Virus record (IMG/VR): IMGVR_UViG_3300011678_000001 | Coordinates: 32,001 to 96,000 of that record | Direction: 5' to 3' (one strand) | Length of the DNA: 64,000 nt | Origin: a virus | Taxonomy: Duplodnaviria; Caudoviricetes | Shown here: in pieces, positions 7,681 through 12,881 of the stretch | How the letters are laid out: every line of letters begins with the position of its first letter | How positions within the stretch are numbered: the first letter of the stretch is position 1 | Program-made: the position numbers and the translations under genes | Notes under the pieces: model-generated | The model's input: only the letters and a program-made list of their open reading frames with translations | What the model was told of the DNA's origin: nothing | Databases searched by the model: none

Positions 7681-7738
7681 ACAAAGAAAAAAGAAAGCAG
7701 CAGACAGGAGGAGGGCTATAGCCCTCCTCCCTATGCCG
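7681..7738. terminator. bidirectional terminator
   Basis: GGAGGAGGGC-TATA-GCCCTCCTCC (7707-7730), followed by TATGCCG on + and TTTCTTTTTTCTTT on -. Confidence 0.75.
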
Positions 7739-8096: not shown

Positions 8097-8609
8097 TTAA
8101 CTGCGTTTCTTGCCAGCACCTAATGCCAGCAGACCCAGGCCCAGAATCAGGGCGCCGAGTCCGGTGTCGCTTTCTTGTTTGACTTCTTTACGGTGACCAC
8201 TGATGCCATGGGCTTGAGCACCCTTCCAACGGGACTCGTGACGCACAGGTTCTTCGATCTCCAGTTCCAAGGTACGAGTCGGTTCACTGCGAACCGGTTC
8301 ACGTTCCATGACCACCAGCTCCTTGTTGACGAAGAAGCATTTCAACCGCAGGTGCAGCGCCGCCGCCAGTGCCAGACGACGATGGTCCTTAGGCAGCTCT
8401 TTCCACTCGGTGCTCATCCAGACGCGCTCACGGTCGCCATCGCAACGAACCACTTCCAGCTCGAAGCGTTCGCCATGGATCTTGAACTCCACTTCATTGT
8501 GGTAGTCCTGCCAACGGACGATGACGCCACGGGTGGTCTTGGTGTGGATTTTAGCGGCGCTTGCCAGGGCGTCGTGAATGGATTTAACTTGGACTTCGAT
8601 AACTTTCAT
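8097..8609 (-). CDS. hypothetical early protein with C-terminal membrane anchor
   Basis: SD AGGAGG; C-terminal GLGALILGLGLLALGAGKKRS. Confidence 0.75.
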   Translation of the reverse strand: MKVIEVQVKSIHDALASAAKIHTKTTRGVIVRWQDYHNEVEFKIHGERFELEVVRCDGDRERVWMSTEWKELPKDHRRLALAAALHLRLKCFFVNKELVVMEREPVRSEPTRTLELEIEEPVRHESRWKGAQAHGISGHRKEVKQESDTGLGALILGLGLLALGAGKKRS

Positions 8610-9684: not shown

Positions 9685-9726
9685 CTCAACTGTACTATGT
9701 ATGGTTGAAAAAAGTTCGAATCAAAT
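9685..9726 (-). promoter_or_regulatory. putative phage early promoter
   Basis: 18-nt identity TACTATGTATGGTTGAAA with 36387-36404; both head minus-strand small-gene clusters. Confidence 0.65.
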
Positions 9727-9852: not shown

Positions 9853-10035
9853 TCAACGCTTGACAGGATCGTTCAATACCCAGTGGGCATCGAGCGTGGG
9901 ATAAGGGGGCGGGGCCGCGGCGTCGGTCAGACACCGCTGGAGTATGGGCGGGAGGCTGCGAAAATGCCTCGCCGCTTCGACCTCCGTTTCAGACTGATCA
10001 GGATCGACCGGTAACGGTGCGTCAGTGTCAATCAT
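9853..10035 (-). CDS. Pro-rich small hypothetical protein
   Basis: SD GGAAGGA before ATG 10035. Confidence 0.5.
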   Translation of the reverse strand: MIDTDAPLPVDPDQSETEVEAARHFRSLPPILQRCLTDAAAPPPYPTLDAHWVLNDPVKR

Positions 10036-10051
10036 GGCGATTCCTTCCAAG

Positions 10052-10132
10052 CGGAATAGTGGTCAGCCAGGGGCGATGGCCATTGCCTATCGCGCTCCTG
10101 AAGCTGTCCCAGGAGATTTGGTACCTTCTCCT
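10052..10132 (-). ncRNA. candidate structured small RNA/leader, copy A
   Basis: AGGAGA[AGGUACCAAA]UCUCCU hairpin, then CAGC..CAGG..GCGAU-A-GGC[AAUG]GCC-AUCGC..CCUG-GCUG; covaries with copies B and C. Confidence 0.6.
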
Positions 10133-10158
10133 ATAATAGTATCCAAGTTTGTTATTTT

Positions 10159-10575
10159 TTACGATTTACGAGGGGGTTGTAATACGTACTTGCCAAACCA
10201 CCATGATAAAGTTGGAGGAAAAACCCGTGCGCTGACGTGGCGTTCAGGATCATAGGGCATCAACGAACCCACCTCTGACTCGTCCACCTCTAGCTGATGC
10301 AGGAGGCTTTGCCACGTCAAGGGCATGGTCAAGGGGGTGACAATAGGGGAGCGGTTCTCAGTCCGACGTCCCGCGCCTTGTTCATTGATGTACGCCATGT
10401 AGATGTCGGTATCTGGCTCTACTTCGGTTAAGGGGGTCAGCATCACGAGCACCATGTGGGTGGCTTCGTTAAAGGTGCTATTGGTGTACTGATCCGTGAT
10501 CACCCCAACCAGGGTATGATTCGGGTTGCGCAAGTCCTTGCCTGTGTAGATCCGGTGTTCGGCTCCGATGGTCAT
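10159..10575 (-). CDS. hypothetical protein (MTIGAEHR...)
   Basis: ORF 10159..10608; the upstream ATG lies inside the TATGCCG motif, so the internal ATG is preferred. Confidence 0.6.
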   Translation of the reverse strand: MTIGAEHRIYTGKDLRNPNHTLVGVITDQYTNSTFNEATHMVLVMLTPLTEVEPDTDIYMAYINEQGAGRRTENRSPIVTPLTMPLTWQSLLHQLEVDESEVGSLMPYDPERHVSARVFPPTLSWWFGKYVLQPPRKS

Positions 10576-10602
10576 AAGGCGGCCTTCGCTAAAACGGTAA
10601 GA

Positions 10603-10686
10603 CGGCATAGATGGCAGCTGGAGGCGATGACGAATGTGTCTATCGCTACTCCAGGGCTGCCCAGGGAAGAGTGGTACCTGTTCCCT
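10603..10686 (-). ncRNA. candidate structured small RNA/leader, copy B
   Basis: AGGGAA[CAGGUACCACUC]UUCCCU, then GGCAGC..UGGA..GCGAU-A-GAC[ACAUUC]GUC-AUCGC..UCCA-GCUGCC, then UAUGCCG. Confidence 0.6.
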
Positions 10687-10712
10687 ACATCATAGTCTAG
10701 CTTAGTTATTTT

Positions 10713-11423
10713 TTACCCTTTTACCACTTTCCCCTTCATCGCATAGGTCGGGAAGGTGTAGGTAGTACCTGCGTGTCCGATCTCTAACCGACTGTCCGTA
10801 AAGAGGTTGAGGTTCATAAACAGGTACCGGGACTGGTCTTCCATCAAGACCCGACGGTCCATCATGGGCCGAAGGACCCTGATCATCCGTTCCTCGTCAC
10901 TTAAGCTCCAGGGCTGCCCAGGCACTAACGGATGCACCTGCATCACCCGCACACTGCCTTTGTCTGATTGGAATGCCAACCGACCTAATCCATAGCGCAC
11001 CATCAAGTCAGCAAAATTCTCAATCGTCTCGCACAACTCGGGACGTGGGGTCTGATAGCGAATGGTATCGTTGAGTTTACTGGGGTAACGGTAGTAGGTC
11101 TCAATTTGTTCCGTTGACAGGTCCAACAAGCTCCTCAGTGCTCCGATCGAGACGAGCCCTACCTGTGTGACCACTTCAAATTTAGCGACCATGGCAGGGT
11201 CGGCATGCGGGCTGACGACCATCCTGACCAAATGCACATTGAGGGTATCCCAGAACTCCTGATCGGGCTCGATAAACTTGTGTGGCTCCAAGTACCCTAT
11301 CAAACAGATGTACCCTGCCCCGGTCGAATACACCGCTACGCAGGAGAAGTGACTCTGAATCTTCTCATCACGTAAGACGTGGGCAAAGTGCAAGCTGTTA
11401 GTGGTCAGGTTAGGGTGCGTCAT
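10713..11423 (-). CDS. hypothetical protein, paralog of 11472..12188
   Basis: Shares FA..I.SHF....G.I..[IV]GYLEP with its neighbour. Confidence 0.7.
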   Translation of the reverse strand: MTHPNLTTNSLHFAHVLRDEKIQSHFSCVAVYSTGAGYICLIGYLEPHKFIEPDQEFWDTLNVHLVRMVVSPHADPAMVAKFEVVTQVGLVSIGALRSLLDLSTEQIETYYRYPSKLNDTIRYQTPRPELCETIENFADLMVRYGLGRLAFQSDKGSVRVMQVHPLVPGQPWSLSDEERMIRVLRPMMDRRVLMEDQSRYLFMNLNLFTDSRLEIGHAGTTYTFPTYAMKGKVVKG

Positions 11424-11471
11424 GCAGAATCGATCCTCATGCAGGCAAAGAAAAAAGAAACAGCGGCTCTG

Positions 11472-12188
11472 TTATCCTCGCGGAGCCAGCGCGTACAACG
11501 GGATAATGTATTCGCGGTCAATCTCAGGGCTCAAACCTGTGCCAAAGGCGACATGGGCTTTACCGTATAACGAGAGCTTGATCGTGACGTGTTGATCGCC
11601 TTCAACGACTAACTCAGGGCGTTGAAGTAAGGGGGTCAGGAACTTGACCATACGCCGTAGATCACGCGGCTGGGGTTCGGTTAACCGAGGACGGGCATAG
11701 CGCAAGTCCATCAGGTGTACCTGTTCACCGATGTGTTGCAAGGTGACATCGGTGATGTCCCAGACTGCCAGCATGTTGGCCACATCGACCACGGTCCCGG
11801 TCAGGAATTCATCCGCCGGTAAGGCTTGTGCTTCTGCTTGCGCCACCGTAACCAAGGCTTCGTCGGCCATGGTCATGATCATGATGTCATCGTCGCGTCG
11901 CAGGGCCATGAGGTCCCGCACCGCCTTGACCTTGACTGTGCCTTGCTTACGCAGCTCCCTGAAGGCCGCTTCTTTCTCCGGCTCCACCTGATCGGATACA
12001 CTGACCCGTGTAATAAACAAGGTCGCTTCATTCAGGTGACTGATGTCTTCAGGACGGATTTCCCATCCCGGCTCCAAGTACCCTACAAAGACAATTTGAC
12101 CGTACTCTGTCTCGTCGGTCCCGATGGCCACAAAGTGACTGTCTATCCCGACATCCGGGTTAATCTTGGCAAACATAAGTTGCGCCAT
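11472..12188 (-). CDS. hypothetical protein, paralog of 10713..11423
   Basis: 238 aa; SHFVAIG...VGYLEP; AAGGA upstream. Confidence 0.75.
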   Translation of the reverse strand: MAQLMFAKINPDVGIDSHFVAIGTDETEYGQIVFVGYLEPGWEIRPEDISHLNEATLFITRVSVSDQVEPEKEAAFRELRKQGTVKVKAVRDLMALRRDDDIMIMTMADEALVTVAQAEAQALPADEFLTGTVVDVANMLAVWDITDVTLQHIGEQVHLMDLRYARPRLTEPQPRDLRRMVKFLTPLLQRPELVVEGDQHVTIKLSLYGKAHVAFGTGLSPEIDREYIIPLYALAPRG

Positions 12189-12230
12189 GGCAGCGTCATC
12201 CTTTGGCTACAGGTGAGTGAAACTATCCAG

Positions 12231-12312
12231 CAAACATAGGTCCATAGCCGAGGGCGATGGCTATTGCCTATCGCTCACTCGGGCTATGCAAGGGCTGCGG
12301 TACCTGTCCCTT
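12231..12312 (-). ncRNA. candidate structured small RNA/leader, copy C
   Basis: AAGGG[ACAGGUACCGCAG]CCCUU, then CAUAGC..CGAG..GCGAU-A-GGC[AAUA]GCC-AUCGC..CUCG-GCUAUG. Confidence 0.6.
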
Positions 12313-12407
12313 ATACCATTGATCGTTCCAGTATTCTTTTACGATTTGCATCCGTGCCGGCTAGCAAGTAGCGACAATCAAGGGTTAGAAGAGACCCCTT
12401 CACTTAA

Positions 12408-12441
12408 GTGATGTATTGCCAAAGTTGATTCGAATCGAATT
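12408..12441 (-). promoter_or_regulatory. variant of the putative early promoter
   Basis: ATGTAT-N12-TTCGAATC on +, same spacing as at 9697-9722. Confidence 0.45.
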
Positions 12442-12455
12442 TCTATCCCTGTCCC

Positions 12456-12881
12456 TCAGAGGGTCAGTTCAAAGGCCTTGGACGCCTTTAAGGTCGTCTT
12501 CAGGTACTCCCGAGCCTCCTGCTCACCGCTGGCCGAGGTATAGACCTCGATCAGGTCCAAGCCACCCTCTGGGGCGACACTCAATTCGTGGATGGTCCAT
12601 GCTCCGTTGAGCACCATGTACAGATGCTCATGGTCATCCGAGACCACTACTTCATAGACCCATCCGGTGTCCTGATTACCTTCCTTGGCCAGGATGTTGA
12701 GCGTGAGGAGATCACGCTCACAGTTTTGTACAAAGCGTAGGATCGAGTCCACAGCAGTGGGGTGTGCTATACCGGCCCACTGGTTGGCATCGTACGAGAG
12801 TTTTACGGTGTCCACTCCTTGTCCCTCATCGTCATCGGTACTGCGCTTGGGTACCAGAGCACTTACCCTGGTCACATCCAT
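12456..12881 (-). CDS. hypothetical protein
   Basis: 141 aa ORF, only substantial frame here. Confidence 0.6.
   Translation of the reverse strand: MDVTRVSALVPKRSTDDDEGQGVDTVKLSYDANQWAGIAHPTAVDSILRFVQNCERDLLTLNILAKEGNQDTGWVYEVVVSDDHEHLYMVLNGAWTIHELSVAPEGGLDLIEVYTSASGEQEAREYLKTTLKASKAFELTL

Follow-up and report, generated by a model that had tools for sequence, protein, structure and literature searches.

A clade-wide, covarying two-hairpin element with a palindromic GGUACC loop, probably an early small RNA, in DT01-like jumbo phages related to phiKZ

Introduction

The systems closest to the element described here are the small RNAs of jumbo phages related to phiKZ. In phiKZ itself, 17 candidate small RNAs derived from 5′ untranslated regions (5′ UTRs) by premature termination have been reported, and 201phi2-1 has 11 small RNAs, eight produced by premature termination and three intergenic; small species were confirmed by northern blot in the 5′ UTRs of PHIKZ221 and PHIKZ302 (PMC10914365, PMC11512511). 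The mapped intrinsic terminators of phiKZ (ONT-cappable-seq) consist of a GC-rich hairpin followed by TTATKYYGT (motif ...GGBYTTATKYYGT; PMC10914365), a motif that is conserved in 201phi2-1 (PMC11512511) and whose TATG core is also part of the late promoters of phiKZ (PMC7598289, PMC12809450). The present work concerns an element made of two adjacent hairpins that occurs three times in a 64,000-nucleotide stretch of viral DNA (hereafter the window), which corresponds to bases 32001-96000 of a single 269,790-bp contig (54% G+C; IMG/VR virus record IMGVR_UViG_3300011678_000001). We put at roughly 0.6 the probability that this element is a short early non-coding RNA of the DT01-like clade of nucleus-forming, phiKZ-related jumbo phages.

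This previously undescribed family is of a type already known among phiKZ-related jumbo phages, that of small RNAs or leaders. It occurs in the same virus group as the small RNAs of phiKZ and 201phi2-1, that is in phiKZ-related jumbo phages with their own RNA polymerases (PMC10914365, PMC11512511). As in those two phages, the putative RNA would start closely before a terminator, lies either upstream of a gene or alone, and is conserved among relatives. It differs from them in that its two-hairpin fold is defined and covaries, its palindromic loop is nearly invariant and it has been amplified to three copies.

Results

The three copies are intergenic, lie on the minus strand and each carry the four parts that a preliminary description of the window had listed at these positions: an A-rich upstream box (A-box), a first hairpin with AGGUACC in its loop, a longer bulged second hairpin and a terminator-type tail. 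Copy A spans 10162-10052, copy B 10716-10603 and copy C 12342-12231. The upstream box is present as described, but its sequence had to be corrected to GTAAAAAATAAC in copies A and B and to GTAAAAGAATAC in copy C. In all three, it is followed after exactly 12 nt by a second conserved box, T(A/G)(T/A/G)T(A/G)TA(A)GG.

In copy A, the A-box (10151-10162, which contains the stop codon of the gene P0003) and the second box TATTATAGG (10130-10138), the proposed start-site region, are followed by hairpin 1 (10111-10132; AGGAGA/UCUCCU stem, loop AGGUACCAAA). Hairpin 2 (10061-10110) is made of three stacked helices with 5′-side bulges and ends in the apical hairpin GCGAU-A-GGC-AAUG-GCC-AUCGC; the tail TATTCCG (10052-10058) fits the phiKZ-type terminator tail TATKYYG (PMC10914365). 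Copy B has its A-box at 10705-10716 (with the stop codon of P0002 inside it), the second box TGATGTAGG at 10684-10692, hairpin 1 at 10663-10686 (AGGGAA/UUCCCU stem, loop CAGGUACCACUC), hairpin 2 at 10613-10661 (apical part GCGAU-A-GAC-ACAUUC-GUC-AUCGC) and the tail TATGCCG at 10603-10609. The corresponding parts of copy C are found at 12331-12342 (A-box), 12309-12318 (second box TGGTATAAGG), 12290-12312 (hairpin 1, with an AAGGG/CCCUU stem and AGGUACC within the loop), 12243-12288 (hairpin 2, apical part GCGAU-A-GGC-AAUA-GCC-AUCGC) and 12231-12238 (tail TATGTTTG).

The patterns AGGTACC-N(15-45)-GCGATAG and GCGATAG-N(5-15)-CATCGCC each match the window exactly three times and were matched in 0/100 shuffles. 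Scans of the whole 269,790-bp genome by regular expression and by covariance model found copies A, B and C only. In each copy, the minimum-free-energy fold is that of two hairpins side by side (z-scores between -2.5 and -4.6).

The major head protein encoded by this phage matches the phiKZ-type family phrog_3231 and is 81% identical to that of Pseudomonas phage pPa_SNUABM_DT01 (hereafter DT01), compared to less than 60% for all other GenBank phage matches (tblastn). Like phiKZ, DT01 encodes both virion and non-virion multisubunit RNA polymerases (PMC8541153). A covariance model of the element (R1, built from 15 copies) recognizes 24 copies in this clade. The pattern scan of IMG/VR revealed three copies in each of the closest relatives (L110, L018 and L107), two in L013, and one at the end of each of the contigs L072 and L088; a first pattern was too loose (>119 matches, mostly due to chance), and a stricter one gave eight loci, six of them true. 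DT01 carries one copy (MW735835.1:41359-41481), located from a blastn match of the region, in the gap between gp041 and gp042. Further relatives were fetched through their major head protein and their whole records were then searched with the model: all seven IMG/VR genomes that are at least 90% complete and whose head protein is about 80% identical have exactly one copy, as does an eighth single-copy relative, a 44%-complete fragment, while four other related fragments gave no covariance-model match. No sequence or model match was found in phiKZ, Noxifer, 201phi2-1 or LucasX, DT01 was the sole blastn match of the elements among GenBank phages, and none of the 77 loci retrieved by a pattern scan of metagenomes was confirmed by the covariance model. 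Within the sampled part of the DT01-like clade, the element is therefore universal; the ancestral state is a single copy, and the subclade of the window has undergone a triplication.

The comparison with Rfam and with jumbo phages that the preliminary description had proposed thus yielded homologs in the clade and no Rfam family. With Rfam 15, no match was obtained at the gathering threshold in the 64-kb window, and at E-values up to 10 in the region 9900-12500 only chance-level snoRNA matches overlap the copies, in agreement with the preliminary description, in which no known Rfam family had been recognized. Polynucleobacter-1 RNA reached 23 bits (threshold 37; E 0.004-0.03) at 12311-12498 on the minus strand, over the end of P0005, an early-promoter-like motif and the A-box and TAGG box of copy C, that is mostly upstream of this copy. 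This match was treated as due to chance because it is absent in five homologous loci and partly overlaps coding sequence. ARAGORN found no tRNA or tmRNA gene in the window. As a separate observation, the first 400 nt of an unrelated 9.6-kb viral contig (L014:1-400; IMGVR_UViG_3300000571_000157) contain two direct repeats of a different element, each with AGGTACC and a 10-bp hairpin (GCGATAAGGA/TCCTTATCGC) whose loop contains GUACC; R1 does not match them.

Covariation was measured on the 24-sequence model alignment (A5). In this alignment, 92% of the cells are paired, compared to 31-42% when the 3′ partners are slid, and 19 of the 24 base pairs show changes on both sides, compared to 8.7 +/- 1.7 in shuffles; none of 500 shuffles reached the observed values for paired cells, double-change pairs and cells, or covariation score. 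Since A5 was fitted to the model, it favors the structure; hairpin 2 was recovered independently by RNAalifold on a plain MAFFT alignment, and all 24 copies individually fold into the two-hairpin minimum-free-energy architecture, with 0-3 nt between the hairpins. Compensatory changes are seen (i) between paralogs, in the lower stem (CAGC/GCUG, GCAGC/GCUGC, CAUAGC/GCUAUG, AGAUCGU/ACGAUCU), (ii) between orthologs of copy B (UGGAG/CUCCA compared to CGGAG/CUCCG), and (iii) in distant copies, where the core GCGAU/AUCGC becomes GCGGU/ACCGC, GCGGA/UCCGC or GCUGA/UCAGC, and GAC/GUC or GCA/UGC replaces GGC/GCC. The selection on pairing that had been proposed from the three copies is thereby borne out on a larger set, and the element is real, with strong support for selection on its structure.

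The three helices of hairpin 2 add up to about 18 bp, and its bulge positions and apical hairpin are conserved across the clade. The core GCGAU-A...AUCGC and its bulged A, initially described as invariant, are so within the subclade of the window but vary in distant copies: the 5′-side bulge persists across the family with different bases (A, C, UA, CA or CU), and the apical loop reads AAUG, AAUA, AAUCG, ACAUUC, AACG, GUCG or CAACAGU. By contrast with these variable bases, GGUACC is found at the 5′ side of loop 1 in 23/24 copies (GGUGCC in L225); conservation is also strongest in the 5′ arm of hairpin 1, which consists of purines only, in the bulge positions and in the TAT of the tail. Mimicry of a CRISPR repeat was also considered and rejected: a match to the Pseudomonas type I-F repeat is 7 nt long (AUAGGCA), and the structural positions are not equivalent.

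Hairpin 2 is followed by (C/T)TAT(G/T)(C/T)(C/T)G, as are about 60 ordinary hairpins of this genome, which fits the phiKZ-type arrangement of a hairpin and TTATKYYGT. The tails are CTATGCCGT in copy B, CTATTCCGC in copy A and CTATGTTTG, a partial match, in copy C, and all nine single-copy relatives have TATGCCG. This last heptamer occurs 47 times in the genome, mostly directly after a GC-rich hairpin; examples of hairpins flanked by TATGCCG (TATKYYG) on one or both sides are found at 7732 (+), 38637 (+), 47277 (+), 55772 (-) and 62146 (+). With respect to genes, the motif is seen in both orientations, and an A-tract or U-tract frequently lies on its other side. Using a simple gene call (326 genes), 70 intergenic sites combining a hairpin and TATKYYG were classed: 24 are located between co-directional genes, on the sense strand, and in 44 a gene on the opposite strand has its stop codon 7-16 nt away from the motif, often with an A-tract on the far side. 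These sites therefore act like terminators, in many cases bidirectional ones, rather than like promoters. The tail had been assigned to the terminator class of the window, and this assignment holds for its genome-wide association with hairpins and for its match to the phiKZ motif (PMC10914365). The ordinary terminators of this genome differ from hairpin 2 in being simple hairpins, with about 12 predicted pairs on average and often a tetraloop cap. We infer that hairpin 2 probably terminates transcription.

The TATKYYG tail contains the TATG core mentioned above, and A-type copies, which have TATT, fit the terminator motif only. A function of TATGCCG as a general late promoter is unlikely, since 44/70 sites point into the 3′ end of a gene on the opposite strand and A-type copies have TATT. 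A second terminator class, made of a variable hairpin followed by a conserved TTCTTTTTTTGGTTG or TTTCTTTTTTCTTTG, was also observed between units and after P0001 (L110:4385-4426, L018:3440-3481, L107:4203-4244; window 11446-11460, minus strand).

On the 5′ side, the A-box GGTAAA(A/T)AAA(A/T)AC is present in all 23 copies that reach this region (22 complete ones, and L072, which is cut inside the box); in the subclade of the window it takes the form G(G/C)GTAAAA(A/G)A..AC. It is separated from T.(.)T.TAGG by a spacer of variable sequence and near-constant length (12 nt, 13 in L223 and L225); the second box contains TATAAGG in C-type copies. Two conserved boxes around an unconstrained spacer of near-fixed length are arranged as in a promoter. 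Moreover, about 12 nt separate copy A from a preceding hairpin and U-tract terminator in L110, L018 and L107, so that this copy needs an initiation signal of its own. From these features, we infer that the A-box/TAGG pair is a candidate promoter. The pair is almost exclusive to the element, with one or two extra sites per genome. In the genome analyzed here, the sole other full match (222897-222929, minus strand, outside the window) directly precedes a gene start (TAGGGGGAGCC then ATG), and a similar site is found at 188,092 in the relative G002. A near-match to the pair lies around 214,270, also outside the window: at 214,130-214,285 on the minus strand, an A-box and TGGTATAGG precede another structured segment, unlike the element, of about 70 nt with a U-rich end. 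A second A-box-like sequence and an early-promoter-like motif come after it, and the whole may be a further small transcription unit.

Two other explanations of these boxes were rejected. A host sigma-70 promoter does not fit, as the -10-like hexamer ends in G, many copies have TGTAGG and there is no -35 element. Nor does a leader peptide starting at the A-box (ATG-GTA-AAA...), as the ATG is replaced by ATC, GGG, ATA or CTG in many copies and no Shine-Dalgarno sequence is present.

A distinct early-promoter-like motif, TTCGATTCGAA followed by a T-rich segment and CAATACAT, has about 13 sites in the genome, each of them on the minus strand with a gene 8-223 nt downstream: those of the window are at 12411-12439, 9697-9720 and 36391, and others, elsewhere in the genome, are at 8182, 96307, 100336, 189630, 214102, 231451, 252160 and 253280. 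It is conserved in DT01 and in the IMG/VR relatives, and shares properties described for the early virion-polymerase promoters of such phages (PMC7598289). The site at 12411-12439 lies about 70 nt upstream of the A-box of copy C, and the single copies of L223, L225, L226, L227, L228 and L229 lie about 75-90 nt downstream of this motif.

The genes that follow the copies differ. P0001, which encodes a 238-aa ORFan (11472-12188), lies downstream of copy C; P0002 (236 aa, 10713-11423) encodes its paralog (25% identity, E 4e-15) and is in tandem with it; P0003 (138 aa from the ATG at 10575, 10159-10575) lies between copies B and A; and P0004 (60 aa, 9853-10035) lies downstream of copy A, all on the minus strand. 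P0004 is apparently related to the DT01 gp042 family, a small gene of which follows the single copy in DT01, L224, L226, L227 and L229; by direct reading, the motif LVRRLL.D.V is common to this family and to the genes located past copy A, both in the window and in L110, L018 and L107. Six loci have no open reading frame (ORF) after the element, namely those of the single copies of L223, L225 and L228 and of copy B in L110, L018 and L107: there, the element is immediately followed by a hairpin and U-tract terminator, then by the next promoter-like motif.

This organization bears on a role of the element as a cis-acting leader, in which a phage or host protein bound to the conserved hairpins would tune termination at hairpin 2, or the translation or stability of the downstream mRNA. 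The gp042-like gene and, in the subclade of the window, the inserted ORFans would have their expression set in this way. Copies A and C and five of the nine single-copy loci indeed have a Shine-Dalgarno sequence and an ORF within about 20-50 nt, hairpin 2 has a terminator-type tail (PMC10914365), and the authors of the 201phi2-1 study suspect that promoter-proximal terminators are regulatory (PMC11512511). However, the six ORF-less loci imply that regulation of a downstream gene cannot be the sole role, and the downstream genes are unrelated between copies. Furthermore, alternative folds of the segment that extends from loop 1 to the apex of hairpin 2 are limited to -5 to -13 kcal/mol, compared to -26 to -38 kcal/mol for the two-hairpin fold, and their form is not conserved; this lack of a conserved antiterminator argues against classical attenuation. 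The proposal of attenuator leaders controlling the adjacent genes is thus weakened, and a cis-acting leader is a possible but doubtful explanation of the whole family.

The same loci bear on an action of the RNA on the transcribing polymerase, as for put of HK022, whereby terminators located downstream would no longer stop the phage RNA polymerase. The 0-3 nt between the two hairpins resemble the architecture of put, the element lies shortly past an early-promoter-like motif and before terminators, and antitermination has been proposed for 201phi2-1 (PMC11512511). Nevertheless, hairpin 2 is itself terminator-like and carries the tail motif of the clade, the next genes at ORF-less loci have their own early-promoter-like motif so that read-through is not needed, and the element has neither a sequence relation to put nor an Rfam match. 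We consider this explanation highly improbable.

Copy A is 64-72% identical to six of the seven single-copy orthologs compared and 51% identical to the outlier L230; except for L230, it is closer to them than are copies B and C. The three paralogous copies are 57-62% identical to each other. The simplest history would be the duplication of an ancestral early unit and the insertion of the ORFans P0001, P0002 and P0003 between the copies, with the downstream gene of the ancestral locus apparently preserved at copy A and its upstream early promoter at copy C. In L110, L018 and L107, only one member of the P0001/P0002 pair is present (P0002 is absent) and P0003 is absent at this position; in L013, the homolog of P0001 is absent. 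The P0001/P0002 family yielded no relatives beyond the triplicated subclade. By tblastn, neither P0001 nor P0003 matches any GenBank phage, and a search of IMG/VR, made with P0001, gave no match either. P0001 to P0005 match no Pfam or PHROG family of known function: P0001 and P0002 have no Pfam or PHROG match at all, and P0005 has two weak matches to PHROGs of unknown function.

The variable presence of P0001, P0002 and P0003 and the restriction of the P0001 family to the triplicated subclade would also be expected from a modular expression cassette (promoter, 5′ stem-loop and terminator) whose repeats allow gene gain and loss by recombination, the RNA having no further role. The promoter-early stem-loop (PeSL) cassettes of T4 provide a precedent, since repeated units made of a promoter and a stem-loop flank ORFans that are variably present among relatives. 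However, the present element differs from them in being ancestrally single-copy, in its strongly selected structure and in the order of its parts, promoter then hairpins. Its paralogs, unlike PeSL cassettes, are too diverged (57-62% identity) for efficient recombination, and yet fold, GGUACC loop and bulged architecture are preserved in every one of them; moreover, a single copy is kept in all eight distant relatives and in DT01, where it has no recombination partner. This explanation is therefore unlikely.

Discussion

The retention of the element throughout the clade, the ORF-less copies, the conserved loop and bulged apical hairpin and the maintenance of three diverged paralogs suggest a role of the RNA itself. 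In the mechanism that we propose, transcription would enter from the A-box/TAGG pair directly upstream of the element and, at the ancestral position, also from an early-type promoter about 80 nt further upstream. The transcript would form hairpin 1, which would display the near-invariant palindrome GGUACC, then the long, bulged hairpin 2, which carries the clade's own tail TATKYYG. By terminating at this second hairpin, transcription would yield a stable RNA some 75-85 nt long, which would be a stand-alone RNA where no ORF follows and a 5′-UTR-derived one where a gene follows. The size of about 80 nt given in the preliminary description is plausible if transcription starts, as predicted, at the conserved TAGG. 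This RNA would act in trans, most plausibly by protein binding through the conserved apical hairpin, by self-pairing through GGUACC, or by both.

A more specific version, in which trans-acting early small RNAs pair with themselves or with their paralogs through GGUACC and the bulged hairpin captures a host or phage protein, is tentative; such an RNA might, for example, be an anti-defense decoy or modulate ribosomes or the phage RNA polymerase. If it were true, the triplication would raise the dosage of the RNA or diversify its partners. The two analogies that had been drawn for these parts fare differently. The self-complementary GGUACC located in a hairpin loop in 23/24 copies recalls the retroviral dimerization initiation site; here, the loop has 10-15 nt and the palindrome is at its 5′ side. 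The coat-protein operators of MS2 and PP7 resemble the apical hairpin in shape only (5-bp stem, 5′-side bulge, 3-bp stem and 4-7-nt loop). They depend on an invariant bulged purine and on specific loop bases, whereas the bases of the bulge and of the apical loop vary here; the lack of conservation of the bulged A across the family weakens this analogy. Furthermore, no coat-protein-like gene was identified, and the neighboring proteins match no family of known function.

Several observations weigh against an early small RNA. (i) The scarcity of the A-box/TAGG pair indicates that it is not a widespread promoter class, and it could be part of the RNA instead. (ii) A second terminator, with a U-tract, closely follows several of the ORF-less copies, which suggests that hairpin 2 is perhaps an inefficient terminator. 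(iii) Neither the family searches with P0001 to P0005 nor the comparison of neighborhoods brought out a binding partner or target. The suggestion that neighboring genes encode the protein partners of the RNA is thus unsupported, given the lack of any match to a family of known function and the differences in flanking genes between genomes. (iv) G.U pairs account for only 8 of the 623 predicted pairs across the 24 copies (1.3%), compared to 37/719 (5.1%) in the ordinary terminators of the genome, and the antisense strand is equally stable (-33.2 compared to -33.9 kcal/mol). With nearly pure Watson-Crick stems and an equally stable antisense strand, pairing therefore cannot assign the strand; these data may reflect a role as a DNA hairpin or a need for very regular helices.

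This last point would fit a hairpin or cruciform signal recognized in single-stranded or extruded DNA (structured promoter, priming or recombination site) rather than in RNA, as would the palindromic loop hexamer, which both strands would display. However, the 24 copies all have the same orientation as their flanking genes (24/24), the terminator tail is always present on the sense strand, the copies lie downstream of promoter-like motifs and several of them upstream of U-tract terminators, and the bulges and loop flanks are asymmetric. The constant orientation, the sense-strand tail and the flanking promoter-like and terminator motifs make the case for a sense-strand RNA, and a signal acting at the DNA level is very unlikely.

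An early small RNA hence remains our preferred explanation. With respect to the preliminary description, a structured family that is new to Rfam and ends in a terminator-type tail is retained, while a role restricted to attenuation and an interaction with the products of neighboring genes are not.

Small RNAs of nucleus-forming jumbo phages are known from transcript mapping, and hardly any come with a defined structure, with support from evolutionary comparison or with a known function. The element described here is a clade-wide family with strong covariation and a simple, easily mutated anatomy: one palindromic loop and one bulged hairpin. Since a single copy is present in the cultured Pseudomonas aeruginosa phage pPa_SNUABM_DT01, its role is directly testable. 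The terminator grammar of phiKZ, a hairpin followed by TATKYYG, extends to a distant clade whose major capsid protein is less than 60% identical (tblastn). In the subclade of the window, new ORFan genes would have been inserted between duplicated copies of a unit of the small-RNA type.

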